Shown here: positions 268-31,484 of the stretch, in pieces | Layout of the letters: the number at the start of each line of letters is the position of its first letter | Numbering within the stretch: position 1 is the first letter of the stretch | Assembly: GCA_041649135.1 (NCBI GenBank) | Contig: JBAZNQ010000001.1 | Span: 445,438-509,437 of the forward strand | Source of the DNA: Patescibacteria group bacterium | GTDB taxonomy: Bacteria > Patescibacteriota > Kazan-3B-28 | Direction of reading: 5' to 3' | DNA: 64,000 nt | Notes under the pieces: generated by a model | What the model saw: only the letters and a program-made list of their open reading frames with translations | What the model was told of the DNA's origin: nothing | Database searches by the model: none | Translations under genes and position numbers: made by a program

Positions 268-621
268 CTAGCCCTTATCCCACTGATCAGCCCAAAAACC
301 CAATGTCGTGACAACTGAAGCATTCGTACTGGGTTCTAAAACCACTTTTTCTCTACCATACTTGGCAATCAGAGGAGTTATCACTTCGTCAGCCCAGGAT
401 GGAGTTAACACAGCGACCCCTGCGAAATCCAGTTCTATTTTTTCACTTTCAGGCAAGTTCTGTAACAATGACTCAACTACCAGAAACGCCTCCCTGCCAG
501 CCGGCCGAGACGAAAGTGTTGTACCAAATTTGTTCAAAATAATTTTCATCTCTCCCTTAATTAAACCATGTATTCTATCAACACATAAAGACCCCTGTAA
601 ATTTTGACACACCTCGGTCAT
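268..621 (-). CDS. STAS-like DUF4325-type small protein
   Basis: 117-aa ORF with a composition typical of the DUF4325/STAS-like family. Its start codon lies inside a Type-1 repeat (ATGACCGAGGTG = MTEV). Confidence 0.45.
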   Translation of the reverse strand: MTEVCQNLQGSLCVDRIHGLIKGEMKIILNKFGTTLSSRPAGREAFLVVESLLQNLPESEKIELDFAGVAVLTPSWADEVITPLIAKYGREKVVLEPSTNASVVTTLGFWADQWDKG

Positions 622-650
622 TTGACTCGTTTTTATTTAGTCATAGACCA
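595..650. repeat. Type-1 intergenic repeat (core ACCTCGGTCATTTGACTCGTTTTTATTT), truncated copy
   Basis: Near-identical to the copies at 2565-2640, 18670-18750 and 25425-25500. Confidence 0.8.
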
Positions 651-671: not shown

Positions 672-770
672 TGGCTCCCTCTACTGGATAAGTTTAGAAC
701 TTTGGATTGGGTAAAAGTGAGGAAAGAGTTGGATGAGTTCAATATTACATTATCACCTGCTACACTCTGA
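672..770. repeat. Type-3 repeat: ORF-like fragment (…WLPLLDKFRTLDWVKVRKELDEF…*), homologous to 26098-26215
   Basis: About 75% nucleotide identity with the second copy. Several differences are synonymous in one frame. There is no start codon, so it is a gene-fragment relic. Confidence 0.6.
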
Positions 771-4197: not shown

Positions 4198-4351
4198 GTA
4201 TCTCTTATTGGTTCGCCTTATTGTTAAGGCGTTGATGGGTGATTTCCCTGAAGAATTCAGGAGCCATCGACATTTTCAGGGTAGCGCAAAAGCTATCCAT
4301 TGTCAAAAAATTCCCGCTCTGGGGGCTACTTCTTAGTACACCTCAAAAGAG

Positions 4352-4710
4352 ACCCTTCGGACCTCGGTCACTTTACTCGCCTGCCCGCCCGTAGTCCGGC
4401 GGACGAAGGAGAGTTTTTATTTGGCCCCGTTAGCATTCCTTACTGAAAAACGAAGTTCCTTCTGTTATTTCAGTAGCGTCAGCTCCGGGACGCACCTGTC
4501 TGGCTCTTCTGTAATCCAGTAGATGTCGCCAACATGTGGCTCAACAGCTCGGTTCAGATTGCATCCCCAAGGAGATAATTTGGGACTTTTGAAAGGGAGC
4601 TCGGGCAAGTGGGTCAGTTGTAGAACCCATAGGAGAAAATGAGACAAATGAGACAGTGGCAGAGGGGTGTGTTTCACTATAGATTTTAGTTGGATTTTGT
4701 GACGTAATCA
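4352..4710. repeat. Full composite repeat (Type-1 with a 34-bp insertion, a TGGCTCAACAGCTCGGTTCAG block, and Type-2 GGAGATAAT…CCCATAGGAGAAAATGAGACAAATGAGACAGTGGCAGAGGGG…)
   Basis: Best-preserved copy of the family. The overlapping ORF 4465..4677 (MKHTPLPLSHLSHFLL…) is a translation of the repeat. Confidence 0.75.
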
Positions 4711-5559: not shown

Positions 5560-5640
5560 TGGAGACAAATGAGACAGTGGCAGGGCCTACTGTTTTGGGC
5601 TGGATTTTGGAGGAGTTTTGTAGCCTTGTGATGGGATAGG
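5560..5640. repeat. Type-2 repeat copy (GGAGACAAATGAGACAGTGGCAGGG…TTTTGG)
   Basis: Shares the GAGACAAATGAGACAGTGGCAGG core. Confidence 0.7.
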
Positions 5641-6696: not shown

Positions 6697-8022
6697 ATGA
6701 AAAAAGATACTTTGGCCGTTTGCTACCTGCCGGTCTCCGAGCTCAAACCGAGCACATATAATCCCCGTCGTTGGAATGAGTCAGCGATTCAACAGCTGAC
6801 CGACAGCGTCCGTAAGTTTGGGATGGTCGATCCCATTCTCGCAAATTCTGCCCCCGGCAGAGAAAACATTATTATAGGGGGTCATTTCCGCTTGAAGGTG
6901 GCCAAAGACCTCGGCATTAAAGAAGTGCCAGTTGTTTTCGTTAATATCCCCGAGATTGAGCGTGAAAAGGAATTAAACCTTCGCCTCAACCACAACCTTG
7001 GCGCTTGGGACTTAGACCTGTTAGCTGAGTTTGATCCCGCCCTCCTACAAGATGTAGGTTTTTCCAGCGAGGAAATGGACGAGATTACTGGTATCGATGA
7101 AAATCCCGAAACCTTTGACCTCCAAAAAGAGTTAGACAAACTGGGCATCACAGACATCGACATCCAGAAAGGTGACCTATGGAAATTAGGTGACCACTAC
7201 CTTGCTTGTGGCGATTCTACAGATGAAGCACATATCACTGGGCTGGTATGTGAAACCGCTCCATCATTCTGTTTGACCGACCCCCCGTACCTGTTGGACT
7301 ATCTCAAAGGCAAGAAAAAACATGGCAAACCAACTGAAGGGTTTGGCTTTAAACGAGATCGTAAATATCTCGAAACTGACAAACTGGACGACGACTTCAC
7401 CGAGAAATGGATGGCAAATATCGCTAAGGTCGCATCACCTAACTTCTCAATTCTCTGTTATGAAAATTGGAAGAACATTCCGATTATTTGGGGTGAGATG
7501 GCAAAGTACTGGAAGATCAAGAACATGATTGTCTGGCACACCCCCAACCGCAATCAAGGGTTCGCCGCGAAGTATAAGTTTTTCAGCAAGCACGATATCG
7601 CCATGGTCGGGCAAAGCGGTGAACCGACTATGAACTTAGAGCCGGAAGATGAGCTGTTGCAAAACGAATACGAAACGGCGTTGTTTGCCATTCAAGGTAA
7701 ACCCCAATGGGAGGGCTACGAGAAAGGTAAGAAGTACCAACCGACTGACTTCATCGAGTTTAATGTGGCCGACGAGAAAAGTTCTGGCCAAGGGATTATC
7801 TTTGGGGTTAAGCCAATCGAAATCTTAATCCCCTACATCAAGGTGCTGACTAAACGTGGAGATTGGGTAATTGAGCCATTCGGCGGTTCGGGCTCAACTT
7901 TGATCGCTTGTGAAAAACTCGGAAGAAAATGCTACATTTCCGAAAAATCTCCTACATACGCTTGTGTGATTCGGAACAGATGGGAAAAGCTGACCGGGCA
8001 GAAGGGAGTGAAAGTACGATGA
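6697..8022 (+). CDS. ParB-like nuclease N-domain fused to a DNA N6-adenine/N4-cytosine methyltransferase
   Basis: ParB-N motifs in the N-terminal half (GGHFRLKVAKDLG). A DPPY motif (LTDPPYL) and FGGSGST in the C-terminal half. Confidence 0.8.
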   Translation: MKKDTLAVCYLPVSELKPSTYNPRRWNESAIQQLTDSVRKFGMVDPILANSAPGRENIIIGGHFRLKVAKDLGIKEVPVVFVNIPEIEREKELNLRLNHNLGAWDLDLLAEFDPALLQDVGFSSEEMDEITGIDENPETFDLQKELDKLGITDIDIQKGDLWKLGDHYLACGDSTDEAHITGLVCETAPSFCLTDPPYLLDYLKGKKKHGKPTEGFGFKRDRKYLETDKLDDDFTEKWMANIAKVASPNFSILCYENWKNIPIIWGEMAKYWKIKNMIVWHTPNRNQGFAAKYKFFSKHDIAMVGQSGEPTMNLEPEDELLQNEYETALFAIQGKPQWEGYEKGKKYQPTDFIEFNVADEKSSGQGIIFGVKPIEILIPYIKVLTKRGDWVIEPFGGSGSTLIACEKLGRKCYISEKSPTYACVIRNRWEKLTGQKGVKVR

Positions 8023-8435
8023 AAACAATGAGCCAAAAAGAAGAAGTGTTGGAAATTCTCCGTCGAACACCCATCGTGGCCACAGCTTGTCAGAAATGTG
8101 GCATCAGTCGCGCGACCCTTTACCGTTGGAAACAAGAAAGTAAAACCTTCGCTCAGCAAGTGGACAAGGCATTAGCTGAGGGCTGCGACTTGATTAACGA
8201 CCTTGCCGAGTCTCAACTTTTGACGGCGATTAAAAATCAGAATCTCACCAGCATCATGTTCTGGCTCCGCAACAGACATTCGTCCTACGCCGAGAAGTTG
8301 CAGGTGATGGCACAAGTAGAACACAAGAATGCTACGTTGACACCAGCCCAACGAGCAATCATCAAAAAAGCATTCACGCTGGCCGGAATCTATAAGAATA
8401 AATTAATTGGAGGTAAAAATGTCGGATCAAAATGA
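8019..8435 (+). CDS. Phage terminase small subunit-like HTH protein
   Basis: ATGA overlap with the upstream gene. HTH (ATACQKCGISRATLYRWKQ). Sits immediately upstream of the large terminase. Confidence 0.55.
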   Translation: MKTMSQKEEVLEILRRTPIVATACQKCGISRATLYRWKQESKTFAQQVDKALAEGCDLINDLAESQLLTAIKNQNLTSIMFWLRNRHSSYAEKLQVMAQVEHKNATLTPAQRAIIKKAFTLAGIYKNKLIGGKNVGSK

Positions 8436-9960
8436 ACTACAAATTTTAATCAGTCAAATCATTAACAACCAAAAACTGCGAACAGAGGCGACGCGTAAAA
8501 ATCATTTTCTATTTTTCCACACGTACTTGGCTGATCACGTCGAATATTCAACGGCTCCCTTTCAGAAAGAAATGTTCGAACTAACCCAAGATGAAAAGTT
8601 AACATTCCTAGTGATTTGCGCTTTTCGAGGTTCGGCAAAGTCAACCTATATGAGTTTGTCATATCCGCTATGGGCGATTATGGGCGACCAGCAACGCAAG
8701 CACATCCTGATTACCAGTAAAACTCAATCGATGGTTAAACGAATCTTCGATAACCTCCGTAAGGAACTCAATGAAAACGCCTTGTTGAAATCCGACATGG
8801 GTCCTTTCCAGAGCGAACGAACCCAATGGGGTGGCGGTACATTGGAGCTAGAGAAATACGGAGCTCGAATTACTGTGGCATCCGTTGACGAGGGCATTCG
8901 AGGAATTCGACACGGAAAACATCGTCCCGACCTGATTATTGCGGACGATGTAGAGGACTTGGGTTCGGTTAGGACTAGGGAGGGTCGAGATAAAACCTAT
9001 GACTGGTTCAATGGCGACCTAATCCCAGCTGGCAGTAGGAACACTCGGATTATCGTCATTGGGAATTTGCTACACGAAGATTCACTCATTATGCGGTTGA
9101 GAGAAGAGATTAAGACCGGTAAGCGAGATGGCTTATTCAGGTTCTACCCTCTATTTGGGACTAACGGTGATTGTTTATGGCCAGGCAAATACCCCGACCA
9201 GACCAATATTGATGCCGAAAGAAAAAAGTTGGGTGATCCAGCCGCTTGGAGCCGAGAATATCTGCTAAAAATCATTTCGGATTCGGAACGAGCGGTTCAT
9301 CCGGGATGGATACATTACTACGACAAACTCCCACCTCATCGCAGCGAAAACCACAAGACAGATTTACGGTACATTGGCATTGCGGTTGACTTAGCCATCT
9401 CCGAAAAAGCATCGGCTGACTATACCGCCATAGTGTGCGGAGCCGTTTATGGTCGTGGTGAAGATATGAAAATCTATATCTTACCCGATGCGATAAACAA
9501 ACGGATTAATTTCCCCACCGTTAAGCACACCGCCACTAAGCTATGTGATGATTTTAAAGATCAAGGCTATGCCATCAAGTTGTGGTTCGACAATACTTCT
9601 TTTCAGGATGCATTCGGTCAGGACTTAGAGCTTATGGGGATTAAGGCCGAAGGATGCCCCACTCAAGGCAGTGACAAACGGACAAGGTTATCGATGACCA
9701 CTCATTTAATTCAGGAGGGCCGAATACTGTTCCCAAAACAGGGAGCCAGACCGCTCATATTACAGTTAATTGGCTTTGGTGTAGAAAAACACGACGACTT
9801 GGCCGACGCTTATACCATCCTGGCGCTGATGGCGATGAAACATAATAAACCCGACACCAACCCAATCTGTGCAAGATGGGACCGAGGTCCCTCTATAAAG
9901 GAAGATTATCTTCGAGGGTCAGGTGGTAGGGGCGGTTACCCATGGCATAGGATACTCTGA
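8419..9960 (+). CDS. Phage terminase large subunit
   Basis: Walker A FRGSAKST, Walker B LIIADDVED, and a C-terminal RNaseH-like nuclease (AVDLAISEK…DYTAIV; HDDLADAY). GGAGG RBS before ATG 8419. Confidence 0.8.
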   Translation: MSDQNELQILISQIINNQKLRTEATRKNHFLFFHTYLADHVEYSTAPFQKEMFELTQDEKLTFLVICAFRGSAKSTYMSLSYPLWAIMGDQQRKHILITSKTQSMVKRIFDNLRKELNENALLKSDMGPFQSERTQWGGGTLELEKYGARITVASVDEGIRGIRHGKHRPDLIIADDVEDLGSVRTREGRDKTYDWFNGDLIPAGSRNTRIIVIGNLLHEDSLIMRLREEIKTGKRDGLFRFYPLFGTNGDCLWPGKYPDQTNIDAERKKLGDPAAWSREYLLKIISDSERAVHPGWIHYYDKLPPHRSENHKTDLRYIGIAVDLAISEKASADYTAIVCGAVYGRGEDMKIYILPDAINKRINFPTVKHTATKLCDDFKDQGYAIKLWFDNTSFQDAFGQDLELMGIKAEGCPTQGSDKRTRLSMTTHLIQEGRILFPKQGARPLILQLIGFGVEKHDDLADAYTILALMAMKHNKPDTNPICARWDRGPSIKEDYLRGSGGRGGYPWHRIL

Positions 9961-9996
9961 TATATTCTATACTGCAGAGGTTTAATAAAACAACGT

Positions 9997-10071
9997 TGGT
10001 GCCCCCGAAAGGATTCGAACCTTTTCCAACTGCGTAGAGGGCAGTTATGCTATCCATTGCACCACGGGGGC
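9997..10071 (-). tRNA. tRNA, probably Arg (anticodon TCT), with an unusual C at position 33
   Basis: Manual fold: acceptor GCCCCCG/CGGGGGC, T-loop GGTTCGAATCC, encoded CCA. The anticodon loop CCTCTAC gives TCT; the isotype is uncertain. Confidence 0.6.
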
Positions 10072-10147
10072 TGGTGCCGAGAGAGAGAGTCGAACCTTCA
10101 ACCTGCTGCATAGGAGGCAGCTGCTCTATCCATTGAGCTATCTCGGC
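10072..10147 (-). tRNA. tRNA-Arg (CCT)
   Basis: Manual fold: acceptor GCCGAGA/TCTCGGC, anticodon stem GCTGC/GCAGC, loop CTCCTAT, encoded CCA. Confidence 0.7.
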
Positions 10148-10162
10148 ATACACAAAAAACAC

Positions 10163-10237
10163 TGGTGCCGAGGGAAGGAATTGAACCTCCTACGCAGAGC
10201 TTTTCAAGCTCTCGCTCTACCAATGAGCTACCTCGGC
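10163..10237 (-). tRNA. tRNA-Phe (GAA)
   Basis: Manual fold: acceptor GCCGAGG/CCTCGGC, anticodon loop TTGAAAA, T-loop TTCAATT, encoded CCA. Confidence 0.75.
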
Positions 10238-10506
10238 ATACAAAAAACACAACCATTCCGTCTCGTCCGAATTCGGACCTGACTTGGTTGTGTTTGCTTA
10301 TTGTCTTCTAAATCGTTTCACTACTCCTATTCTACTCCCCCAAGACTGTTGCACAAGAGACCGGAAAGGATGGATTGGCAACGCCAACCCCGTCCTATGC
10401 TCTTTGCGAACCTAGGGCTATACGTTCGTCTCTGGCCAGCCAGAGACCCCGAGGGCTGTACTACTTTGAATCTACACCGCCGAACTCTGTTAGACAAGGT
10501 ATCAGC

Positions 10507-11991
10507 CTATTTAATGTCAGATAAAAACTGGAAGATCTTAACCATCGCATAAGTGTCTAACTCACAGTATTTGGTTAGGTCTTTAAGAATCTTATCTTTC
10601 TCCTCGGCTCTTTTCCCATCTAAGACAGCTTCCATCCATAACCTTTGGGCGGCTCCACCGGCATGAATATCTAAATCCTTATATGAAAGTTCAGGGATAA
10701 GAACAGGCAATACCTGCTTGATTGAAGCACTCCCAAAGAAGTCCTTGTGAATGTAGGAACCAGTTGAGAAAGGAATCATCAAATCAACAATCCGATCATT
10801 CAGATCTTTATAAAAAGTTTTGAATTCTGGGAGTAGAAGTCCCAAAAACTCATTACAAGTCTTTTCAAAACCCTCAAACCAAACCAAGACCGTACCGCTA
10901 TCACCGATGTGCGACTTGAGCGATTCCGAGATTGGTTGTGCCGGGTTGCTGTTCTCGTGATGCAGATATTCAAAATGCTTTACCTCGCCTCCGGGCTTCT
11001 CGATGACGTGAAGAGAGTATTGAAACGGTAATTGTTTATACGGCCCTAACCCATCAAAGTACGGCACTACACTAGACAGGGTTTCGTAATCGAGGAAATA
11101 CAGGGGGTATTTTAGCTCAGACAAGAACTGCTTGATTTTTGGCTTGTCCACTAATACCTCGTCACACTTGGTTGCCTGAACTTGGCCTTGTTGTTTTACA
11201 CTAAGAGCAAAATCTTCCGGAATGTCTTTTATCTGCTTAATGCCCAATGTTTCAAGTTTGCCAATCTTACTCGCACCAGGAGCACAAAGATCATAAATAC
11301 TATATTCCTCTACCTCGGCAAGGGTCTTGAAGATCCCGAGCCAGTCATTGAAAGCCCCTAGCTTAGTCAAAGAAGGTGAAATATCTGGACACTCTTTAGA
11401 ATTCATCACCGCCAGAGCTTGTTTGATATTCTCTCTGGTAGTCTCCCGTAGTGCTTTGACTTGGTCAGTAACTTCAGTCATCTTGGCCAGATCTTTGGCC
11501 GTAACTTCTCCATTTCTAACATATTCATTGTTTACATGAACAACATAAATCTTGTTCACCTTGTAACCACAGTCTTCTAGCACTACCATCTGAAATGCCA
11601 AATCTGGCTCATGCTCTGGCTTAGCATGAGTGCTGGATTTAATCTCATAAAGATCGAACTCATTGTCCTTAACCCGAACCAACACATCGCAGATACAAGT
11701 AATGTCACCAGCTTCAAAGCGACCCTGCATAATAGTGATCGCCCCAGACTCTATCACTTGTTTCGTCTCGGCAGTTAACCTTGCGTATGCCTTATAGTCT
11801 CCTCGATCATATTCTAGCTTTGTGGCATCAGGGAAAAGCTGTTCGGCATATGTCTCGAACAGGAAACCAGCATCAAAAATCGCCTGTGTGTCTTCATCTA
11901 CAGGGGGTAATTTATCTTTGGCGTGTTTCTTGAGCCAGAGCCAGGCCGGATGGCGGAGAAACAACATATAATCTGACTTTGAGAGTTGCAT
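10507..11991 (-). CDS. DUF2779-like protein: N-terminal PD-(D/E)xK (RecB/Cas4-like) nuclease plus C-terminal RNaseH-like exonuclease domain
   Basis: D…EIK motif (CDVLVRV…DLYEIK) and a C-terminal FLDYETL… region. Confidence 0.55.
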   Translation of the reverse strand: MQLSKSDYMLFLRHPAWLWLKKHAKDKLPPVDEDTQAIFDAGFLFETYAEQLFPDATKLEYDRGDYKAYARLTAETKQVIESGAITIMQGRFEAGDITCICDVLVRVKDNEFDLYEIKSSTHAKPEHEPDLAFQMVVLEDCGYKVNKIYVVHVNNEYVRNGEVTAKDLAKMTEVTDQVKALRETTRENIKQALAVMNSKECPDISPSLTKLGAFNDWLGIFKTLAEVEEYSIYDLCAPGASKIGKLETLGIKQIKDIPEDFALSVKQQGQVQATKCDEVLVDKPKIKQFLSELKYPLYFLDYETLSSVVPYFDGLGPYKQLPFQYSLHVIEKPGGEVKHFEYLHHENSNPAQPISESLKSHIGDSGTVLVWFEGFEKTCNEFLGLLLPEFKTFYKDLNDRIVDLMIPFSTGSYIHKDFFGSASIKQVLPVLIPELSYKDLDIHAGGAAQRLWMEAVLDGKRAEEKDKILKDLTKYCELDTYAMVKIFQFLSDIK

Positions 11992-12085
11992 AAATTTATT
12001 TTGAACTATTTTTTACAATCTCTATCTCCTCTGGGGTAAGGTTATAGAGCCGATAAACCATCTGATTAATTTGATTTTCGTATTC

Positions 12086-14353
12086 TTAATTCAGGTTAAG
12101 AATTTGAAACTCTTTTAGTGAAGGGTTGTAAGAATATTTTACGCCTCTATTAATCTTCCAGCCGTTTGGTCCGTCTTGTACGACAATCCCTCCATCAAAG
12201 CCCTTCTTGCCTTTAAGCCATTTTTGGAGCGCTTCGGCTTTATATCTCGTGTCACCACTTTCTGCAGTTAAACCCGCTTTAGTATCAAAGATACAAACAG
12301 CGGCTTTTGTCTGTACTATCCAGTCAGGATAAAATAGTTTTTCTTTATTTTCGTCTGTGTTGTAGTAAGAAATTGAAAAATATTCGCTCCCAACATCGCC
12401 ATTCTTATACCACCAAATAACATTTTTGGATGATTCGAGAAATTTAATAAACGCCTCCTCATTGATCCGCCCAGAGTATGCTTTTTCTATCCAAAATGGT
12501 TCCATTGCTGATTTCTTGACTGGTAATGACTCATATTGATCAGTAAAAAATAGAGTACCACGAGGGATATCAATATGCTCGATGCGTCGTGCGCGAGAAG
12601 ATCGCCTATTCACTTCTTGCTCCCGAACGGGACGATATGTCGAAAGTGAATCGCCGATAAGTGGTGCAAGTACCCCTGCCGGGCTAACGAGATCATTTAC
12701 GATAATTCGATAGACGTCAGCTCGAGAGATACCAAGCTTATTCATTAACCAAACATTTAAGGCCGTTTTTAGTTTTCCCCATGATCGTTCAGGGGCGAAT
12801 TTTTTGTTTTCGTCAACCTGGTTGGCGATTATCTTAAAACAAAGAAGGTTATAGAGTCGCTCAAGGTCATGCCGTGACATTTCTTGATCATGACTTCCGC
12901 CCTCCGCAAAAAGTTCTTTTGTGAAATTATCATAGTCATCTATTTCTACGCCAACAATTAAACCGTTTGTTACTTTTGGTTTCAGGTTCAATCTCTTAAC
13001 ATCAAATTTTTTATCAGCAACCTGTTTAAAAGTTTCTTGGAATGAGTCTCCCAAGTCGTTGTAGTCAGTGCGAGTCATAAAAATCGACTCTAGTTGAATT
13101 GGCTTTACATTCTTTTTACGATAACTGGCATTCGGTGAAGGACGATTTTCCGTTTTTGATTTTGCATACTCAGCAAGTACTTCGTTTCTCTTATAGTTAG
13201 TATAGAGATAACCCAAATTCAACTCTGGTTTAGGAAAGTGATAACCAAATGGCATACGTAAGATTCGTCCCACGGTTTGAATCGCAAAAGTGGGATTTTT
13301 AATTTCCCTGAACATCACCAGTACACTTGCTCTGGGGCAGTCCCAACCAGTAGCGGCGGCCTGTTTAAAAAGCAGAAATGCTACTGGAGAGTCGCTCTTT
13401 TCTAAATCCTCAAGGTTCTCCTTTTCCCTTGAAAGCCAAACGGCAATCTCATCGTTTTTTAGACCCTTACGCTTCAGATACTCCGAAACTATTGCCTGTT
13501 TCGTTGTCCCACCTGCTTCTTTAGACGCCTGATCATCGTTTGGTAACTGAATAAGAACGAGCGGATTGACCTTTATATCCAGCTCTTTGTATAAAGCAAT
13601 AATCTCTTTGCGCTTATTGTAGGCAAGTTCTAGGAGTAATTCGTCCTGATCGAGATTTTTGATTGTTTGTTGCTCTAAATCCTCTTCGGTTTGAAAAACA
13701 ATCTTTTCCTTAATAAGACCTGCTTCAATAACGTCTAACCTCGGCACATCAACAAACTTATATATCTCTCCTAATTTTGGTTCAAACAATGGTGTAGCTG
13801 AAACTCGAAGAGTAATTTTGGGTTTTACTAAGGCAATTACCTCATCCGCCAAAGCTGATCGAGTCCCCAACTGCTCTTCATCTATAATCAATACAATTTT
13901 TATTCCTGCCTCATGACTTTCGTTAATAAAATTATCAAAAGTGAGTCCAGTTTCATTTTCACGACGCAACTTTCGGCTTGCTTTGTCAGTGGCTTTGATC
14001 TTCTGCCAATTTATGAAAAATACATTATTTCTCTGTAACCTTCCGCGAGATAGGTCATTCAGATCAATCAAATCCAACTCTGAAGCTCCACCGTAATACT
14101 CAAAAAGTTTCTTTTTGCTTTGCTCATACGAATCCTCGCTGAAAGAAAACCAAATAAACGAGACGTCGTTACCCTCAAACCGAGGATCACTAACAATATC
14201 CCGTAAAAACTGTGCGAGCATGATTGTTTTGCCAGAACCAGTTGGTGACTTAAAAACCAATGGAATATTCTGATTTGGATTCTTCCACAACTCAAGAAAG
14301 TCATTCTTGAGATTAGATATCGCAGCTTCCTGAAAAGGTTTTAATACCAACAT
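12086..14353 (-). CDS. res: Type III restriction enzyme Res subunit (SF2 helicase-nuclease)
   Basis: Walker A SPTGSGKT and a DEEQ box. 755 aa, immediately downstream of the mod gene. Confidence 0.8.
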   Translation of the reverse strand: MLVLKPFQEAAISNLKNDFLELWKNPNQNIPLVFKSPTGSGKTIMLAQFLRDIVSDPRFEGNDVSFIWFSFSEDSYEQSKKKLFEYYGGASELDLIDLNDLSRGRLQRNNVFFINWQKIKATDKASRKLRRENETGLTFDNFINESHEAGIKIVLIIDEEQLGTRSALADEVIALVKPKITLRVSATPLFEPKLGEIYKFVDVPRLDVIEAGLIKEKIVFQTEEDLEQQTIKNLDQDELLLELAYNKRKEIIALYKELDIKVNPLVLIQLPNDDQASKEAGGTTKQAIVSEYLKRKGLKNDEIAVWLSREKENLEDLEKSDSPVAFLLFKQAAATGWDCPRASVLVMFREIKNPTFAIQTVGRILRMPFGYHFPKPELNLGYLYTNYKRNEVLAEYAKSKTENRPSPNASYRKKNVKPIQLESIFMTRTDYNDLGDSFQETFKQVADKKFDVKRLNLKPKVTNGLIVGVEIDDYDNFTKELFAEGGSHDQEMSRHDLERLYNLLCFKIIANQVDENKKFAPERSWGKLKTALNVWLMNKLGISRADVYRIIVNDLVSPAGVLAPLIGDSLSTYRPVREQEVNRRSSRARRIEHIDIPRGTLFFTDQYESLPVKKSAMEPFWIEKAYSGRINEEAFIKFLESSKNVIWWYKNGDVGSEYFSISYYNTDENKEKLFYPDWIVQTKAAVCIFDTKAGLTAESGDTRYKAEALQKWLKGKKGFDGGIVVQDGPNGWKINRGVKYSYNPSLKEFQILNLN

Positions 14354-14357
14354 AGAC

Positions 14358-16121
14358 TTATAGACGGTTTAACTCTTTGTATACCTCAAGAATCGGCTCA
14401 GGGATATCCTCGACTCGGATATTTTCCGAAGAATATTCACCTTTATATTCATTTTTACCCCAGCTAAAAATGTATAAAGCAACCGGCATATCTTTCTTCC
14501 CCAAACTTTTGACTAACTCCTCCAGCTTTGATTTATCTTCCTGAAAATAAATTGCAGACATCTGTTCATGTCCTCGAAATATCTGCCACCAATCGTTCCT
14601 CTCGATTTCATTAAGTGTATCTTCTCGCACCGCAATCATCTCTCCGGCTTGATAGGTAATGCGAATTTTTGCCTCATCCGGCACTTTGTGGATTTGTTCA
14701 ATATCCACGAGGTCAGTTTGGTAATACCAGAAGTTGCTCGGAATACCTAATACTTTATCGTCATTTTTATTCTTATATCCATTAATGACAGCATTGATAC
14801 GGGGGTAGCAAACTGATTCGGCAATGCCCCCATTGCCGTCATTATTATTTTCGTTATTAGTACAGAGTATAAATTTACGGTTACCACCATCCGCCTTATT
14901 CATCTCTAAAACAGCATGCCCAGTTGTCCCTGAGCCAGCAAAAAAGTCTAAAATATTTGCGTTTGGACGTGCACCTACAACAGCAAAAATACAGTCATAT
15001 ACAGTATAAAGTGACTTGGGGAAATCAAAATCACAATCTGGGATTATCTCACGCAGAAGCTTTGTTCCATACTCACCTGCATCATATTTCTTATCCGTCC
15101 AAACGGTTTTGTATGTTCCGTAATCTTTTGCAATCATTATCTGGATCATTCCGCCGTGCGATTCCTTAACCTGAAGGATATCTTTTATTCCCTCAACACT
15201 CTGTCTTGCATATCGCCACTTTCGTTCAACGCCCTTTTCGTCAATTGGCCAAACATAAACACTACCATCTTTTTTCTTTTCGTTTGCCGACTTCGGATGA
15301 ACATCGTCAGATACAACATTACCGAAGCCAATAATCTTTCCACTTTTTATGATCAATGGGTAGAAACAATTTCTTGCATCTGTACGCTTAGACTCATTGC
15401 CCCAATTACGCAAATTGGAAATATAGACCTCATCCTTAGCAAGAGAACGATCGCCGATGGTCTTTTTATTCTTCGGAACAACAAAAATTGCATATTCATG
15501 AGTATAGGAAAAGTTAGTGCCTTGGACACCCTTGGGATTATGAATAATGGTTACCGTATGTTGTTCGTGTGTTGGGAACAATTGCTCAATCAGCACTCCC
15601 AAATGTGCCTGCTCATTATCATCAATCGCACAAATCATTACACCATCATCTTTCAATAAATCTTTTGCCAAGCTGAGGCGATGGCGCATAAATGAGAGCC
15701 ACTTACTGTGTCTGTATTCGTCATCCCGATCCACATAATCATTGTTGTATTTCCAGTTTTTTGCGCCTGTGTTATACGGCGGATCAATGTAGATGAGATC
15801 AATATTCTTTTTGTGGGTGTAGTTGAGAACCGACAGTGCGAGATAGTTATCACCCTCAATCATCAAGTTATTCGGATACGCCTCGTCCAAATTAAGGCGG
15901 TTTTTAACAACTTCTTTCAGAACGGGGACTTTGATTTTTGATTGCTCAACAACATCTTCCATCTTGTCTTCAAAAACCAGCCCAAGATTGTTCTTCTTGA
16001 GTTTTTTGATTTGAGCTTGTAAATCCGCCACCTCTTTTTGTAAATCTTTTCCAGACATAATAATCACCCTTAAGCCATTCGACTCTAGCTCTATTATGGC
16101 TTCTTGCGAAGCTTTTTCCAA
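14358..16121 (-). CDS. mod: Type III R-M Mod subunit (N6-adenine DNA methyltransferase)
   Basis: DLIYIDPPYNTG (motif IV) and FFAGSGTTGHA (motif I). Confidence 0.85.
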   Translation of the reverse strand: MEKASQEAIIELESNGLRVIIMSGKDLQKEVADLQAQIKKLKKNNLGLVFEDKMEDVVEQSKIKVPVLKEVVKNRLNLDEAYPNNLMIEGDNYLALSVLNYTHKKNIDLIYIDPPYNTGAKNWKYNNDYVDRDDEYRHSKWLSFMRHRLSLAKDLLKDDGVMICAIDDNEQAHLGVLIEQLFPTHEQHTVTIIHNPKGVQGTNFSYTHEYAIFVVPKNKKTIGDRSLAKDEVYISNLRNWGNESKRTDARNCFYPLIIKSGKIIGFGNVVSDDVHPKSANEKKKDGSVYVWPIDEKGVERKWRYARQSVEGIKDILQVKESHGGMIQIMIAKDYGTYKTVWTDKKYDAGEYGTKLLREIIPDCDFDFPKSLYTVYDCIFAVVGARPNANILDFFAGSGTTGHAVLEMNKADGGNRKFILCTNNENNNDGNGGIAESVCYPRINAVINGYKNKNDDKVLGIPSNFWYYQTDLVDIEQIHKVPDEAKIRITYQAGEMIAVREDTLNEIERNDWWQIFRGHEQMSAIYFQEDKSKLEELVKSLGKKDMPVALYIFSWGKNEYKGEYSSENIRVEDIPEPILEVYKELNRL

Positions 16122-16200
16122 ATCTGATTTTGTCTGGACTTCGCCACCCCTTCGGGCATCCTTGTCCTTGATATAGCCCTATAGACAAATGGAGAAAAAT

Positions 16201-18640: not shown

Positions 18641-18669
18641 GGCTAATCTGGTTTTTGGGCTCCCAGACC

Positions 18670-18930
18670 GAAGTAGGCGCTTTAAGGCACCTCGGTCATT
18701 TGACTCGTTTTTGTTTGGCTCAACAGCTCGGTCTCGGTTGGTTTTCCACGCTAGTCCTCCATAGCGCTATCTATATCAGAAGAGGCTAATGACCTATTTC
18801 TGATGAGATAAAGCGTAGGATGGAAGGAGATAATCTAGAGGTTTTGAAAGGGTGTTTAGGGGGACAGGTTTTGTGTAACACCCATAGGAGAAAATGAGAC
18901 AAATGCGACAGTACTTTGGATGATTTTTAG
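18670..18930. repeat. Composite repeat (full Type-1 plus Type-2)
   Basis: The Type-1 core ends with …TGGCTCAACAGCTCGGT. Type-2 contains GGAGATAAT…CCCATAGGAGAAAATGAGACAAATGCGACAG. Confidence 0.75.
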
Positions 18931-19804: not shown

Positions 19805-19829
19805 CTTGATAATATTATAGATTGTCAGG

Positions 19830-25404: not shown

Positions 25405-25424
25405 GGTTCTATTGTATACCTCCT

Positions 25425-25500
25425 AAAGGACGCTTTGAGGCACCTCAGTCATTTGACTCGTTTTTATTTGGCTCCGTTGGCTAGAAGAAGTCAGGACTTG
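25425..25500. repeat. Type-1 repeat, variant tail (…TTTGGCTCCGTTGGCTAGAAGAAGTCAGGACT)
   Basis: Same head as other Type-1 copies. Shares its tail with 26640-26700. Confidence 0.8.
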
Positions 25501-26031: not shown

Positions 26032-26097
26032 GTCTATATCTTATCAGGTTCTAACTCCTATTCGGGGTACAAAAATAACCAGCTCCTATGGCTGGTT

Positions 26098-26215
26098 ATT
26101 CTCTGGCTCCCCCTGCTGGATAAGTTTAGAAAAGTTGACTGGATAAAAGTCAGAAGAGAGTTAGATGATTTTGTATTAAAAAATGTCGGGGTTTCACCGA
26201 CTTCTATCGCCTGAG
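26098..26215. repeat. Type-3 repeat/gene-fragment (…LWLPLLDKFRKVDWIKVRRELDDF…*), homologous to 672-770. Begins with TGGCTCCCCCTGCTGGAT, which resembles the tRNA-Asn 3' end TGGCTCCCGCGGCTGGAT.
   Basis: Direct comparison: 15/18 identity with the tRNA-Asn 3' end at 31410-31427. Confidence 0.5.
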
Positions 26216-26229
26216 CGATAGCCGTTACG

Positions 26230-26586
26230 TCAATTGAATTGCGGTGGGTAGGTCAACTGTCCCAGAAACCGAAATGATTCCCTGTCCAAGCGTTTGTGAA
26301 GACGCTTGAGCTTCTCCTGCTCTTCGCGGATAGTATTATCATACTTCCACTTAGGCGGGGGTTCGGGATACGTGGTCTTCATATAATCCCACTCATAATC
26401 ATCTGGGGCTGTCTGTCTGCGAACACGTAATTCCCCGATGAAAGCTTCCGTGGCAAGAATCTGTTTGTCAATTTCTTCCACAGAGGGCTGGTTGAAGACC
26501 CAATCAACTGCATCGTCAAATTGACGCAGAATCACCTTGGCTTTTAGCCACCGCAATAATTTCAAGTTGAGTATCAAGCTCAACAT
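26230..26586 (-). CDS. Hypothetical protein
   Basis: 118-aa ORF. Confidence 0.4.
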   Translation of the reverse strand: MLSLILNLKLLRWLKAKVILRQFDDAVDWVFNQPSVEEIDKQILATEAFIGELRVRRQTAPDDYEWDYMKTTYPEPPPKWKYDNTIREEQEKLKRLHKRLDRESFRFLGQLTYPPQFN

Positions 26587-26639
26587 AGGTTCATCACCTC
26601 CACTGATGATGATTTATATATATCAAAAAACTCGCTTTC

Positions 26640-26700
26640 AGTCAAGCTTTTCTTGGTTTGGCTCCGTTGGCTAGAAGAAGTCAGGACTATGCCTGCCTAG
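26640..26700. repeat. Type-1 repeat tail fragment (TTTGGCTCCGTTGGCTAGAAGAAGTCAGGACT)
   Basis: Identical tail to 25470-25500. Confidence 0.7.
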
Positions 26701-27217
26701 AAATAAACACGAGTTTCTGAGTTTCCCGATCATAGGTTATATAGACCTTGCCACTATAGCGCCCCTCGCTAGTAAGGTCGTTCAACAAAATTGCCAAAGT
26801 ATCAGCATCAGTGTCTGTTAGACCAGCAGGCATCAGCACATACAACTCCAACCCGCCTTTCGTAAGCGTTAAATCTACCACCTCTTTGGACCTTTTAATC
26901 TTTCGGAGCAGATCCTGTGCTAACTCTTTCCCAAATTCCTGAAAAAATCCTTGAGCCACAAGACCTATTGTTGTAGCCACCGACGTCCATATCCAAAAGC
27001 CTAAGGTCAGCCCACCATCGCCACCCCCCCGCTCTGGCAAAACCTCATAAATAGCCACCCTGTCATCTTCCGCCCCAGCCAACTCTCGTAATGGCGTCGG
27101 GTCCACTTCCCAGCCATTAAACACCACATCGATCCATGCAGTCCCCTCTAGATGGCTGAGCTGCGAACTATCAAATGGCTCATAATGCTCTCTATCCGCT
27201 TCTACAAATTTAGCCAT
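26687..27217 (-). CDS. Hypothetical protein
   Basis: 176-aa ORF. Confidence 0.4.
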   Translation of the reverse strand: MAKFVEADREHYEPFDSSQLSHLEGTAWIDVVFNGWEVDPTPLRELAGAEDDRVAIYEVLPERGGGDGGLTLGFWIWTSVATTIGLVAQGFFQEFGKELAQDLLRKIKRSKEVVDLTLTKGGLELYVLMPAGLTDTDADTLAILLNDLTSEGRYSGKVYITYDRETQKLVFISRQA

Positions 27218-27389
27218 AAAAATTCATTTTTATCCATTATTATAGCTTCCCAAACGAAGGTTTTCCAGATAATACGCCTCCTGCTAGCTATTACTCACAC
27301 TAGCCAAAGTTCTTGACCGAGTATCACATCCACTACATACTGTAAATAGCTCATCTACCATGCGTGGAAAGAGTACTAGACGCCGCCCT

Positions 27390-27893
27390 TTACTGGGCGG
27401 TGTTGGTTTTGCACCACTCTTCACATTCAGCTTCCAGTCTACGCTTGCGGTGGTCATACTCTACGGTATAGGCAGTCAACAATACAAAATACCCCTTATT
27501 TCTAGGTGCCAAAACAACCACATAGCTCCAATCTGAAAGTGCAATGCAAACATGAAGCTTATCCTTACGTTTTACTTCCCAAACCTTCAGACTAGCCGAA
27601 TTTTCAATCATCGGCCTGACCCAACACACTCTCTCGCAACGTCGTAAATCTGGGATCCTTGTTGCCTCCGTCTTGCCTTCTGAAACTAAGTGCCAGAACG
27701 TAATACCCTTTCCATTAAGGGGTGGAGCAAAACGACTAACGACTGGCAGACCCCTAAAAAGAGGCTTACTTGCAACAAAATCCTTGCAGTAATGAGCGTA
27801 AATAGCATCAATGTATTTATCCCAATTACCGCTATGTTCTCCGAGCTCAACAATCGCAGGCAACCAATCAATTGTCGCAACACCATCAGCCAT
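27390..27893 (-). CDS. Hypothetical protein with a possible PD-(D/E)xK nuclease motif
   Basis: IPDLRR…(21 aa)…WEVKRK fits PD…(D/E)xK. The call is weak. Confidence 0.35.
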   Translation of the reverse strand: MADGVATIDWLPAIVELGEHSGNWDKYIDAIYAHYCKDFVASKPLFRGLPVVSRFAPPLNGKGITFWHLVSEGKTEATRIPDLRRCERVCWVRPMIENSASLKVWEVKRKDKLHVCIALSDWSYVVVLAPRNKGYFVLLTAYTVEYDHRKRRLEAECEEWCKTNTAQ

Positions 27894-28584
27894 TTCGTGC
27901 CTCCCACCGCAACAAATTCAGCTTGTCTTCTCGAACCAGAGTGGTGGCCTTCAGACTATAACCAGAACGTTGTTTTATTTTAGCTATGATATCAAGTTTT
28001 GCCTGACTCGCCTGCAAACCACGTGCTGTGTATGATACTGCGCCCAATAAAAAGTCAGCCAATTGAAGAATCTCACTTTCGTGAGAGCGCATATTTTGAA
28101 TCTTTGCTACCACTTTCCTAGAGATATCCCCCAAGCTAGTGGCAAGCACATCATGCAGCTTCTTCACCTTATCCGCACTACGACTATCTTTGATGTCTAA
28201 GTATATGTCGTATTTATTTTCAGGATGCAAAATGACCCATAGCATCTCGTAGTACATTTTGTAATACCAATCGTCATGGGTCTGATTGTGCGCCTCATGA
28301 TTCAACACTCCCTTATCAGGTATCACCAGCGCCCTAAAGTGAAGATCGGAATTGTCGAAAAAATAATTCACCAAATCAAGATAAAAGGCTTCTTTGGCTG
28401 GGGAAACCTTTGACCACTTGATTTCAAAGCTACCACTAAGGCCATGCTCTTTTTTAATTTCCCGAATTCTTTGCGAAATCGGACGAACTTTTTCTATGGG
28501 GCACCATATGGCGCCCAGCGACATAGCCAGTTGTTTGTCATTTTCCAAGTGACAACTTTCGTCACAGTAAACATTAAAATCCAT
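27886..28584 (-). CDS. DUF3800-family protein
   Basis: N-terminal FNVYCDESCH motif typical of DUF3800. Confidence 0.55.
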   Translation of the reverse strand: MDFNVYCDESCHLENDKQLAMSLGAIWCPIEKVRPISQRIREIKKEHGLSGSFEIKWSKVSPAKEAFYLDLVNYFFDNSDLHFRALVIPDKGVLNHEAHNQTHDDWYYKMYYEMLWVILHPENKYDIYLDIKDSRSADKVKKLHDVLATSLGDISRKVVAKIQNMRSHESEILQLADFLLGAVSYTARGLQASQAKLDIIAKIKQRSGYSLKATTLVREDKLNLLRWEARNG

Positions 28585-28680
28585 ACTTCCTCCTGATAGC
28601 TAAAAGTGGGTGAAAACAACACCCTACATCATTTTACACCCAAATTAGGTTGCAAATAGACCATCCCATCTATCTTCTCT

Positions 28681-28860
28681 ATCGTGTCGGAAAACTCTTG
28701 ATTTTCCGACTGCTTCGTGGCGCAGTATAAAAAATCAGCTATCTGCTCGTTCCAAAAAACTCTTTTTTATCGTGTCAGGAAACTCCTTTTGCCGTGTCGG
28801 AAAATTACCCAACATGCCCTCGTTCAGGCAAAAGCGACCTTTTACCGTGTCAATAAATCA
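28681..28860. promoter_or_regulatory. Iteron/operator cluster: four direct repeats of (A/G)(T/C)CGTGTC(G/A)GAAAA. The first is a perfect palindrome, GTCGGAAAA-n7-TTTTCCGAC.
   Basis: Copies at 28681, 28769, 28791 and 28844. Confidence 0.6.
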
Positions 28861-28872
28861 TCGTTTTCTACC

Positions 28873-29043
28873 GCCCACCGTACATATCAACCCAAAAGAC
28901 ATACCCAGCCACAATCACAAAAATCACTAACGTAAAAATTCCAGAGGCCACTTCCCCAGCATACAAATACAGCAACACACCACTAAACAAGAATAGGGCA
29001 ATGGACATAATGAGACACAGAGGATAAATCTTTGGATCCATGT
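28873..29043 (-). CDS. Possible small hydrophobic protein (57 aa), below the ORF-track cutoff
   Basis: Manual translation: MDPKIYPLCLIMSIALFLFSGVLLYLYAGEVASGIFTLVIFVIVAGYVFWVDMYGGR. Confidence 0.25.
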
Positions 29044-29068
29044 TGATTAGGAGATAACTTATATCACA

Positions 29069-29230
29069 AAAGGGCAGACCTCACGCTTGGTCTACCCGAA
29101 ACCTCTTGCCCTGTTAGGAGCTGAGCGTCGCGGACAAGCAGAGCATCTGCCCGTCTCTGCCCACGACACCTCTCTCAATAGAGGCCTAACAGGAATTGTA
29201 GATATACAAATTTTGGTTTCAGGTAGACGC
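29069..29230. other. Second copy of the structured inverted-repeat element (GGGCAGACCTCAC…GCAGAGCATCTGCCC; CTGTTAGG…CCTAACAG)
   Basis: Homologous to 18435-18590. Lies about 600 bp upstream of serine recombinase B. Confidence 0.6.
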
Positions 29231-29412
29231 CCACATTTTACCTTGTGCGGACTTTTTTATCCACATTTTTATTTTCGCCCCATAAGATAAAGATATATTC
29301 CAATCGTTGCTCTGGAAGCTGATTTCGCACTAGACAGCCTGTTGCGAATCGATACAATGAAACTAGTTTCGACAGTTCACTTGTTCATTTAGCAATACAA
29401 CCAGTTCGCGGC

Positions 29413-29640
29413 ATGGTTAGCTGTGTTTTCAAATACATGGTTACTTCAATATCCAGCAAACGAGTCGCGGAGTTCGCACGTCTGTACAAGAACGCTTACG
29501 GCATCAAACTGACGCACGAACAAGCAGAGAGCAAAGCAAAAGCATTGCTCAATCTTGTAATTGCCATGTCCCCCTCCCAACCCAACGGTATATTAGTTAA
29601 CCAAAATCATCGAAATGAAAGACAAGTTAGTCCGTGTTAG
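29413..29640 (+). CDS. Small protein, paralog of the 5587..5775 product
   Basis: Shared EFxRxYxxxxGxKxxxxxAxxxAxxLLxLxxAM motif. Confidence 0.4.
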   Translation: MVSCVFKYMVTSISSKRVAEFARLYKNAYGIKLTHEQAESKAKALLNLVIAMSPSQPNGILVNQNHRNERQVSPC

Positions 29641-29818
29641 TAGTGAGTCCCATAAGCTCCTCAACCTATACGCTGTAGCCCAAGGTGAAAGCCTGAAAAG
29701 CGCCATAGAGCATCTCATCAACTCTGCAATTGAAGCCGACTCAGAGCTTCAGCCACTTTTCATTCAGCTTGCCAACCACTCTGCAACAAAACCAGCAGAA
29801 CCTGCTGGACTTAAATAA
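29615..29818 (+). CDS. Small ribbon-helix-helix-like DNA-binding protein
   Basis: KLVRVSSESHKLLNLYAVAQGESLKSAIEHLI is RHH/Arc-like. Sits immediately upstream of the recombinase. Confidence 0.35.
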   Translation: MKDKLVRVSSESHKLLNLYAVAQGESLKSAIEHLINSAIEADSELQPLFIQLANHSATKPAEPAGLK

Positions 29819-29846
29819 AAACTTCGAGTATTGGTTTGTGTTGACT

Positions 29847-31451
29847 ATGAAATATATTCTCTACGCTAGAAAGTCCTCAGAAAGTGAAGACCGACAAGTA
29901 CTGTCGGTGGATTCGCAAATTCAAGAATTAAAGGCATTAGCCAAACGCAATGGTCAGCAAATAGTAGCTGTCCTTCAGGAATCGATGTCAGCCAAAGACC
30001 CAGAAAAGAGGCCAGTATTTGAAGAAATGGTAGATAGGATCAAGGGCGGAGAAGCTCAAGGTATTATCTGCTGGAAACTCGACCGATTAGCCCGCAATCC
30101 CGTTGATGGTGGAACAATCCAATGGATGCTCCAAAGAGGCGATGTCACGCACATTCAGACAGCTGATAGAAGTTATTACCCCAGCGACAATGTACTTCTG
30201 ATGAGTGTGGAGCTTGGTATGGCAAATCAGTTTATTCGAGACTTAAGTCAAAACACCAAAAGAGGTCTACGCGCAAAGGCAGCTCAAGGACACTATCCTG
30301 GCTATTCAACTATTGGATATATGCACGACCCTCTAGTCCCTAAGGGGAAAAAATATATCATCCCCGACCCAGAACGATTCTCGATTGTCCAACGAATGTT
30401 GCGACTAATAATTGATGGGGAAGCTAACCCACCTCAGGCACTAAAGGTCGCCACAGAAGAATGGGGTCTTAGAAGTAGGCTCGGCAACAAGTTGCCACAA
30501 AGTACTATCTATCGAATCATCAAAGATCCTTTTTACGCAGGATACTATGAATACCCTAAAGCCAGTGGTAATTGGTTTGATGGACTACATGAGGCAATGA
30601 TTACCAGAAGCGAGTACGACACACTCCAAGCAATTATGAAACGACCAAGTAGAACCCGTCCCAAAACCCTAATCTTTGCCTATACTGGCCTAATCTACTG
30701 TGGAGAATGTGGTGGTATGGTCACTGCCGAAATAAAAAGAAAGGTCTTAAAGAATGGGGAAATCAGAATCTACATCTACTATCACTGCACCAAGCGGAAA
30801 AATCCTAACTGCACTCAAAAGTGCATTACCGAAGAGGAGCTAGAATCTCAACTCGTAGCCATTCTTAAGCGAGTAGAACTCCCAGAGGATTTCAGCGAGT
30901 GGGTCATCAAGCAACTAGAGCTCATGAACCGCCAATCTGCCGAAAACCGCCAAGCCATATTGCGCGACCTGCAAGCTAACTACCAAAATTGCACCAAGCG
31001 TATCGACACCCTTATAGACATGCGTACTTCCGAAGCTATAACTTCAGAAGAGTTTGATACCAAGAAAGTTCAGCTACTAGCCGAAAAGGAACGAATCCAC
31101 GAGCTCCTGAATGACAAGGATCGCGATGTTAACCAGACCGTGGTTAGAACCGAGACAATCATAAGATTAGCCGAGCAAGCCACCCTTAAGCTCAAAACTG
31201 GTAGCATTCTCGAGAAGAAGCGTCTAGTATCCCAATTATGTTCGAACCTGACACTGCTAGACAATAAGCTCACCCTAGAAGTAGAAAAACCATTTTCTAT
31301 CGCAGAACGGCTGGCCACAGAAGTGCATGCCATTGCTGAAGGGTTAGAACCGCAAAAAGACCGCTCACAGAGCGACCTTATTGCCGAAAAACTAGTTGAT
31401 TCTGATAACTGGCTCCCGCGGCTGGATTCGAACCAGCGACCCATCGCTTAA
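29847..31451 (+). CDS. Large serine recombinase; the 3' end overlaps tRNA-Asn on the opposite strand
   Basis: YARKSS, DRLARN and a C-x2-C…YYHC zinc ribbon. Start taken at MKYILYARK. Confidence 0.85.
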   Translation: MKYILYARKSSESEDRQVLSVDSQIQELKALAKRNGQQIVAVLQESMSAKDPEKRPVFEEMVDRIKGGEAQGIICWKLDRLARNPVDGGTIQWMLQRGDVTHIQTADRSYYPSDNVLLMSVELGMANQFIRDLSQNTKRGLRAKAAQGHYPGYSTIGYMHDPLVPKGKKYIIPDPERFSIVQRMLRLIIDGEANPPQALKVATEEWGLRSRLGNKLPQSTIYRIIKDPFYAGYYEYPKASGNWFDGLHEAMITRSEYDTLQAIMKRPSRTRPKTLIFAYTGLIYCGECGGMVTAEIKRKVLKNGEIRIYIYYHCTKRKNPNCTQKCITEEELESQLVAILKRVELPEDFSEWVIKQLELMNRQSAENRQAILRDLQANYQNCTKRIDTLIDMRTSEAITSEEFDTKKVQLLAEKERIHELLNDKDRDVNQTVVRTETIIRLAEQATLKLKTGSILEKKRLVSQLCSNLTLLDNKLTLEVEKPFSIAERLATEVHAIAEGLEPQKDRSQSDLIAEKLVDSDNWLPRLDSNQRPIA

Positions 31452-31484
31452 CAGGCGATTGCTCTACCGCTGAGCTACACGGGA
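31410..31484 (-). tRNA. tRNA-Asn (GTT)
   Basis: Manual fold: acceptor UCCCGUG/CGCGGGA, anticodon loop CTGTTAA, T-loop TTCGAAT, encoded CCA. Confidence 0.75.

Follow-up and report, generated by a model that had tools for sequence, protein, structure and literature searches.

The two short open frames at positions 672 to 770 and 26104 to 26215 of the analyzed DNA (64,000 nucleotides from a patescibacterium of the Kazan-3B-28 lineage, referred to below as the window) are best explained as attL-type scars of integration into the 3' end of a tRNA-Asn gene by a serine recombinase that carries attP in its own gene, a reading to which we assign a probability of roughly 85%. According to this model, attP would be located in the last ~6% of the integrase gene, and crossover in the common TGGCTCCC core would cut that gene in two. 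The first ~520 codons would remain beside the tRNA gene and gain a tRNA-encoded tail (..DN followed by WLPRLDSNQRPIA and a stop codon), and the native last 32-36 codons would be transferred to the element's other end, persisting there as a start-less open frame. Integrase tails would be stranded at the far end of an element because the attachment site sits within the integrase gene, and excision is predicted to rebuild a gene of 557 aa. Direct support comes from the identity of the cores, the reading frame common to both gene parts, the collinearity of the joined product with intact homologs, the overlap with tRNA genes across the family, the uniform orientation of the tails, and a 5-bp shift between two kinds of half-sites.

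The first fragment, W1 (672..770, plus strand, encoding WLPLLDKFRTLDWVKVRKELDEFNITLSPATL before the stop codon), would be an orphan integrase tail, that is, a scar composed of the core, the P' half-site, and the displaced C-terminal codons. The second, W2 (26104..26215, plus strand, encoding WLPLLDKFRKVDWIKVRRELDDFVLKNVGVSPTSIA), would be a tail with a P' half-site carrying TTTAGAA at +20; its frame is shared across the core with the large serine recombinase B. The homology of the two segments, noticed in a preliminary description of the window, is confirmed by in-window tblastn (WLPLLDKFR..DW.KVR.ELD.F.. and a stop, 60% identity over 35 aa, E about 2e-12), which detects only these two copies across the 64 kb; at the DNA level, the pair reappears in a search for gapless repeats (68 nt, 81% identity, family D8). 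The similarity starts abruptly at 672 and 26104 and ends at the stop codons 768-770 and 26213-26215, so the second segment stands but begins 6 nt later than the 26098 given previously. Divergence is of the coding type in a single frame, as had been proposed: third positions hold 10 of the 14 nucleotide differences in 23 gap-free codons (binomial P=0.004). The pattern holds when ten copies, from the window and nine Patescibacteria genomes, are aligned: the W1/W2 frame is the only one open across all of them, and entropy is 1.30 at the third position versus 0.85 at positions 1-2. Neither fragment has an in-frame ATG, GTG, or TTG 5' of the conserved block, in agreement with the earlier statement that both lack a start codon. 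A terminator-like hairpin on the minus strand (26185-26201), serving the convergent gene of 118 aa, falls within the last W2 codons, and the 3' part of this tail is thereby doubly used.

The first 18 nucleotides of both fragments resemble the 3' terminus of tRNA-Asn in reverse complement, from the CCA and the discriminator base through the acceptor strand to the T-stem strand. The gene for this tRNA-Asn(GTT) is intact (31410..31484, minus strand), and we consider it the integration target that provides the B' arm of attB. The attR core TGGCTCCCGCGGCTGGAT at its 3' end (31410..31427) is matched at 15 of 18 nucleotides by the W1 core TGGCTCCCTCTACTGGAT (672..689) and at 16 of 18 by the attL core TGGCTCCCCCTGCTGGAT at W2 (26104..26121). 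No other core sites are present in the 64 kb, and all three lie on the plus strand; the minus strand of the fragments has no tRNA fold beyond the 18-nt core. The two mismatches of the W2 core are C9 and T11, opposed to G9 and G11 in attR. Since acceptor-stem pairing of the tRNA needs G9 and G11, the crossover would fall within TGGCTCCC. This string is invariant at the nucleotide level across the ten copies and is kept in the genomic locus L003 despite a 1-nt frame shift, which argues for a constraint at the DNA level at the 5' edge of the fragments.

The T-loop motif TTCGAAC starts at +15 from the G of GCTCC in all ten tRNA-Asn sites. Eleven of the 12 tails, among them W1 and W2, have TT[CA]GAAC at +20 from GCTCC; only L003, the copy with the 1-nt deletion, departs from this spacing (+19). 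The T-loop-like motif TTMGAAC thus lies 5 bp further out in the tails than in the tRNA. In serine integrases, attB carries the motif bound by the zinc-ribbon domain (ZD) closer to the centre than attP does, by 5 bp (Rutherford et al. 2013, PMC3783163), and the spacing difference observed here matches this shift. The spacing rule suggests that the fragments are P' half-sites and that the conserved peptide x-[F/V/I]-R-T is largely a translated DNA recognition motif. The attP predicted by joining the end of recombinase B to the tail reads ..GATAAC TGGCTCCCCCTGCTGGATAAGTTTAGAA...

Recombinase B in its integrated form (29838..31451, plus strand, 537 aa, identical to P0001) enters the tRNA-Asn gene by 42 nt and ends with ..VDSDN WLPRLDSNQRPIA; these last 14 codons are the reverse complement of the tRNA gene, and the TGG of the core is read as a codon in the same phase as in W2. 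Pfam identifies the Resolvase (PF00239, 7e-22), Recombinase (PF07508, 3.5e-7), and Zn-ribbon (PF13408, 4.7e-9) domains within 29730-31451. The N-part of recombinase B and W2 together form an ORF of 557 aa, of which the N-part contributes 521 codons and every domain detected by Pfam, and the joined product is collinear to its end with the intact proteins P0042, P0064, P0066, P0068, and P0070 (..LLPxLDxFRTxxW..). In a set of 120 proteins, phmmer maps W1 and W2 to the very end of the C-terminal region (E=1.9e-5 and 8.5e-5; residues 526-556 in proteins of 557-564 aa), with reversed-sequence controls at E of at least 0.3. The only proteins found to end like W1 and W2 are the recombinases themselves.

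In the AlphaFold model of the intact homolog P0068 (mean pLDDT 84), two helices, 350-397 and 403-454 (pLDDT mostly 83-95), appear to form the long coiled-coil insertion of large serine recombinases, and the tail beyond the crossover is the least confident part (78, 70, 44, and 53 in the last four blocks). We suggest that the integrated 537-aa form of recombinase B is probably still functional. The native tails are highly variable in their C-terminal parts, and a role as degradation tags in the style of phage BPs was rejected, since no consistent tag-like ending was seen among them. A 67-aa ORF located directly 5' of recombinase B (29615-29818, plus strand) looks ribbon-helix-helix-like by eye (MKDKLVRVSSESHKLLNLYAVAQGESLKSAIEHLI..) and could possibly encode a regulator or a directionality factor.

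The reconstructed protein belongs to a large family: of the scored candidates, 4765 are homologous at E<=1e-10; source labels are present for few of these, and nearly all such labels name Patescibacteria. Three classes of C-termini are seen. The first, which includes P0001, is tRNA-encoded, for example ..SPxLLRGQDSNLRPxD, where DSN is the reverse-complemented T-loop. In the second, the tail is intact and either resembles those in the window (P0042 LLPVLDAFRMVNWKKIKEEV.., P0064 ILPLLEAFRTINW.., P0068 LLQLVDDFRTLDW..) or is of a related type, LLRxLDDVRTC.., and in the third the ORF stops at the junction. A family profile found 574 relatives, and 80 metagenome loci were fetched and classified. 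In 31 of them, the 3' end of the integrase gene overlaps a tRNA gene on the opposite strand by 10-151 nt (Asn in 12 cases, His in seven, Ser in four, Gln in three, and Tyr, Met, Ala, Arg, and Gly in one each); the remainder have tRNA-like tails without a called tRNA (13), intact tails (22), or are unresolved (14).

A search for orphan tails used 46 intact tails as queries; with L012 removed as a duplicate and tails located within integrase ORFs left out, it yielded 14 distinct tails, every one of them on the same strand as the integrase. An upstream tail is present in integrated loci such as L019 (7.6 kb), L031 (10.2 kb), L067 (8.8 kb, at a tRNA-Ser gene), and the window itself (5.3 kb). Comparison with the tRNA 3' end at the DNA level failed to locate the left end for most family members because the common core is only 8 nt or shorter; the tail-peptide search worked. 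The gene order integrase, tRNA-Asn, rpoD, dnaG recurs in four different contigs (the window at 31410-35700, L013, L014, and L102), which points to this tRNA-Asn gene as a conserved hotspot. The family integrase ends with a tRNA-encoded tail in L013 and L102 and reads into tRNA-Asn in the others. Between tRNA-Asn and rpoD, three of the four contigs have a 23S-rRNA-IVS four-helix-bundle (IVP) or a GIY-YIG gene, which is absent in L102.

Several observations count against the model. Intact integrases occur within the long chromosomal contigs L092 and L095, where tandem junctions would offer an explanation, so far only a hypothetical one. There are also integrated loci such as L014 for which no left tail was found. 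A search of the protein collection gave neither an excised or circular form of the window element nor an intact WLPLLDKFR-type integrase. The ends of L010, a 7-kb contig and the only short one with an intact integrase gene, do not overlap, and its circularity was rejected. The ends of Logan contigs fall at a 32-nt repeat described below and at the tRNA gene, and we read them as assembly breaks in repeats. The preliminary description proposed looking for an uninterrupted tRNA-Asn locus in relatives; exact-protein look-ups of the flanking genes returned the same arrangement only and no empty-site strain variants.

A compact element with recombinase B at approximately 26.1-31.4 kb, as outlined before, is supported, with an ambiguous left end. 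The cargo (26216..29837) consists of four minus-strand genes (118, 176, 167, and 232 aa, the last a DUF3800 gene) and small plus-strand ORFs 5' of the integrase; no ORF longer than 75 aa is present between 28584 and 29730, and no other gene of the element has a Resolvase match in Pfam. Directly after the displaced tRNA 3' end, a minus-strand hairpin with a U-run (26060..26103, -25 kcal/mol, z=-6.0) resembles a terminator; it was missed by a simple consensus terminator scan and may represent the native flank of tRNA-Asn (the B arm). Similar hairpins occur left of the tails in L002, L005, L006, and L019. The ambiguity arises from a perfect 32-nt direct repeat, TTTGGCTCCGTTGGCTAGAAGAAGTCAGGACT (25467-25498 and 26657-26688, D12), flanking a 1.19-kb block that contains a minus-strand NUDIX gene, the hairpin, W2, and the minus-strand gene of 118 aa. 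The left arm contains a tail-like scar of a second type (TGGCTCCGTTGGCTAGAAGAAGTCAGGACT, WLRWLEEVRT.., 25469..25498, plus strand) and the right arm its twin (26659..26688, plus strand); the identity of the arms stops just past the ZD-like GTCAGGAC at +20. Because W2 and recombinase B are separated by the scar at 26659, the pairing of ends is not unique, which also counts against the model, and the sequence is compatible with a left end of recombinase B that may be at 26659 (4.8 kb) rather than at 26104 (5.3 kb). We infer that W2, and not the 26659 scar, is the native tail of recombinase B. Each fragment adjoins a NUDIX gene, and the two were considered as a meaningful pair; this was rejected, as they share 28% identity over 54 aa only, and such distant relatives beside the fragments look coincidental.

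The layout of the scars raises the possibility that some of them, W1 above all, are maintained as mini-att sites of integrase-less cassettes or as handles for co-excision. This view of a tRNA-anchored array, as opposed to a graveyard of dead elements, is compatible with the origin of the scars proposed above, and we hold it with considerable reserve. Single minus-strand genes lie between tail scars in L011 and L012 (five to six in succession), L003, L006, and the window, where the order is scar 25469, NUDIX gene, scar 26104, 118-aa gene, scar 26659. In L011 and L012 (139-4735), five to six scars (FLHALDDVRTC..) are separated by one or two minus-strand genes, among them an RsgA-like GTPase and a HATPase-DUF4325 gene, and the array sits upstream of an element with an intact integrase (P0068); L003 has three tail copies and L006 two. 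Conservation in L011 does not extend beyond about 55-60 nt, which is the length of an att site, and the perfect 32-nt repeat of the window likewise ends directly past the ZD-like motif. Against this, the mobility of the cassettes is read from the layout, the similarity could reflect recent duplication, and the sites coincide in part with a general family of intergenic repeats. Moreover, we know of no serine integrase that recombines one attP-like site with another. The broader proposal that tRNA genes of Patescibacteria anchor integron-like arrays built by serine integrases, with the tails as working P' half-sites, is similarly speculative. If it were true, single-gene cassettes or nested blocks, as in the window and L011, could be captured or excised together with the integrase element, and the universal tRNA T-loop would be the recognition motif of the zinc ribbon, letting the family hop among tRNA species.

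That the fragments are pseudogene stubs, left by random deletions in integrase genes without any site-specific recombination, seems very improbable. Such an origin could account for the missing partner of W1 and for the decayed appearance of the arrays; random deletion would be expected to leave ragged ends, and the 5' boundary is exactly at TGGCTCCC in all ten copies from different phyla-level lineages. This boundary coincides with a tRNA 3' end, and several left flanks are terminator-like hairpins, as expected 3' of a tRNA gene.

The preliminary description correctly recognized the fragments as a protein-coding 3' end at the boundaries of integrative elements. It further took them for duplicated ends of a protein-coding target gene, with a replacement end carried by the element, and here the data lead elsewhere. 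Coding-like, start-less, and directly oriented fragments would be expected under that proposal; the common target sequence, though, is confined to the first 18 nt and belongs to the 3' end of tRNA-Asn, and the peptide is homologous to the C-termini of serine recombinases. The suggested search for an intact parent gene gave no candidate in 5.8 billion proteins with a profile built from the two-peptide alignment; none of these proteins has even three 5-mers in common with the peptides, and a scan of viral contigs found no match. A scan of one genome per species detected nine loci with the peptide, all in Patescibacteria/CPR (the Kazan, Paceibacterota, Gracilibacteria, Nomurabacteria, Saccharibacteria, and Peregrinibacteria groups). 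In each of the nine, the frame opens from a few to ~40 codons before the motif, and no long ORF is found upstream. A protein-coding target is therefore hardly credible.

In three of these loci, a conserved protein of ~375 aa starting with MIDT(I/V)(V/C)L.IPK is encoded 2-2.6 kb downstream of the tail scars (L001 8651-9772, L004 8190-9347, and L006 6614-7729). The least probable reading, under which the fragments would represent a small gene in their own right or a structured RNA, would fit an open frame conserved across phyla and conflicts with the lack of a start codon, a stop codon immediately before TGG in L007, the variable C-terminal parts, and the Rfam results (six tRNAs only in the window at gathering thresholds, and no match in the fragments or repeat elements at permissive ones).

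Placed among known systems, the integration model finds what appears to be its closest conceptual precedent in archaeal SSV-type integrases, the "suicidal" tyrosine integrases with attP in the ORF, whose genes are split to opposite ends of the element by integration into tRNA genes (Badel et al. 2020, PMC7253208). The likeness is in attP lying within the integrase ORF and in the partition of the gene on integration. The enzyme differs, being a bacterial serine recombinase with serine-recombinase domains only and not an archaeal tyrosine integrase, and so does the outcome: the SSV-type split gives two inactive pseudogenes, whereas here it would fall after ~94% of the ORF, so that all the domains detected by Pfam stay in the N-part. 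Hybrid SSV-type genes can also reassemble from differently derived pieces (PMC7253208).

The ssrA islands of Dehalococcoides also rank among the closest precedents. With their recombinase DsiB, integration likewise takes place in a tRNA-like gene, within its 3' part, and directly repeated copies of the target 3' end mark the islands that lie in tandem (McMurdie et al. 2011, PMC3146451). As in recombinase B, the gene of this ~540-aa serine recombinase crosses the att site at its 3' end (PMC3146451). The overlapping part was regarded in that paper as non-functional and divergent, and the displaced tail was not recognized (PMC3146451); in contrast, the native tail is identified here, is conserved across phyla, and would double as the P' half-site. 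The target of DsiB is tmRNA, which is absent from the window, and the target here is tRNA-Asn(GTT), with other tRNAs used across the family. The small companion recombinase DsiA (~200 aa) has no counterpart here. In mycobacteriophage BPs, attP lies in the 3' end of the repressor gene, and the prophage form of the protein has a different, shorter C-terminus (Villanueva et al. 2015, PMC4557955). There the repressor is split by a tyrosine integrase and an ssrA-like degradation tag is lost, whereas in the present family the integrase itself would be split.

The family resembles the canonical large serine integrases (Listeria A118/LI, Bxb1, and phiC31) in the Resolvase, Recombinase, and Zn-ribbon domains, the long coiled coil, the short attachment sites, and the position of the ZD motif 5 bp nearer the centre in attB, and differs from them in that the apparent ZD motif is the universal T-loop sequence. 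The attP sites of the canonical enzymes are intergenic, and their targets are, to our knowledge, protein-coding genes. The tyrosine-integrase islands of the Islander type likewise show an intact tRNA with a displaced copy of its 3' end and accumulate in tandem at one tRNA; here, by contrast, the duplication covers no more than about 8-18 nt of the tRNA, and the conspicuous repeat is integrase coding sequence. The Islander authors reportedly considered tRNA genes unknown as a target class of serine recombinases in 2014. The similarity of the arrays to integrons is an analogy only, as integrons depend on the tyrosine integrase IntI, attI, and attC cassettes, and the recombinase here is of the serine type. 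We found no paper on this CPR family, or on a tRNA-targeting serine integrase with attP in its own ORF, in a literature of which our coverage is incomplete.

The results document a very large family of tRNA-targeting serine integrases, with thousands of members, whose arrangement is a bacterial equivalent, built on a serine recombinase, of the archaeal "suicidal integrase". They also suggest a boundary rule for elements of Patescibacteria (CPR), in which islands are hard to delimit: one end would be marked by a serine-integrase ORF entering a tRNA gene on the opposite strand, and the other by a start-less ..L(P/R)xLDx[FVI]RT.. tail, located upstream and on the integrase strand. The attB and attP half-sites and the 5-bp shift between them can be read from genome sequence, which is useful for mining integrases with predictable sites. 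The arrangement also raises the question whether the swap of the C-terminal tail on integration alters the activity or directionality of the integrase.

The interval of 0.7-26.1 kb, previously described as a single element bracketed by the two fragments, appears to be a composite with several scars, since further att-like scars subdivide it. In addition, the left flank of 26104 is the terminator-like hairpin, no integrase N-part adjoins this position, and tblastn with recombinase B found no remnant of one upstream of this position. W1 would then be an orphan scar whose cognate N-part has been lost from the window. Recombinase A (16189-17556) was rejected as its partner: it is 37% identical to recombinase B over residues 2-345 only, ends about 70 residues short of the position equivalent to the crossover, and has neither a core nor a tRNA at its 3' end. 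The gene of recombinase A is part of a phage-like block (6697-17556) that also contains a ParB-N6/N4 methylase gene, small and large terminase-like genes, a DUF2779/Cas4-like gene, a tRNA cluster Arg-Arg-Phe (9997-10237), and type III restriction-modification genes.

An intergenic repeat (..GGCGCTTTGAGGCACCTCGGTCATTTGACTCGTTTTTATT followed by TGGCTC..) is present in six plus-strand copies between 0.6 and 26.7 kb (603-640, 2549-2650, 4336-4430, 18657-18755, 25410-25511, and 26618-26690). It is restricted to the accessory region left of tRNA-Asn, never occurs in the core half of the window, has one copy in the Kazan-group genome L001 (5498-5545), and has no Rfam match. The copy at 603..640, ending in ..ACCTCGGTCATTTGACTCGTTTTTATT, lies just left of W1, and other copies directly adjoin the TGGCTC core. 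Finally, a second composite repeat is found at 1299-1386, 4569-4700, 5562-5621, 18824-18912, 19815-19853, and 23999-24058 of the window and at 5560-5700 of L001. It contains AGGAG..ATGAGACAAATGAGACAGTGGCA, in which a short ORF (MRQMRQWQ..) comes after a Shine-Dalgarno-like site, and is possibly a small-peptide gene or a leader.
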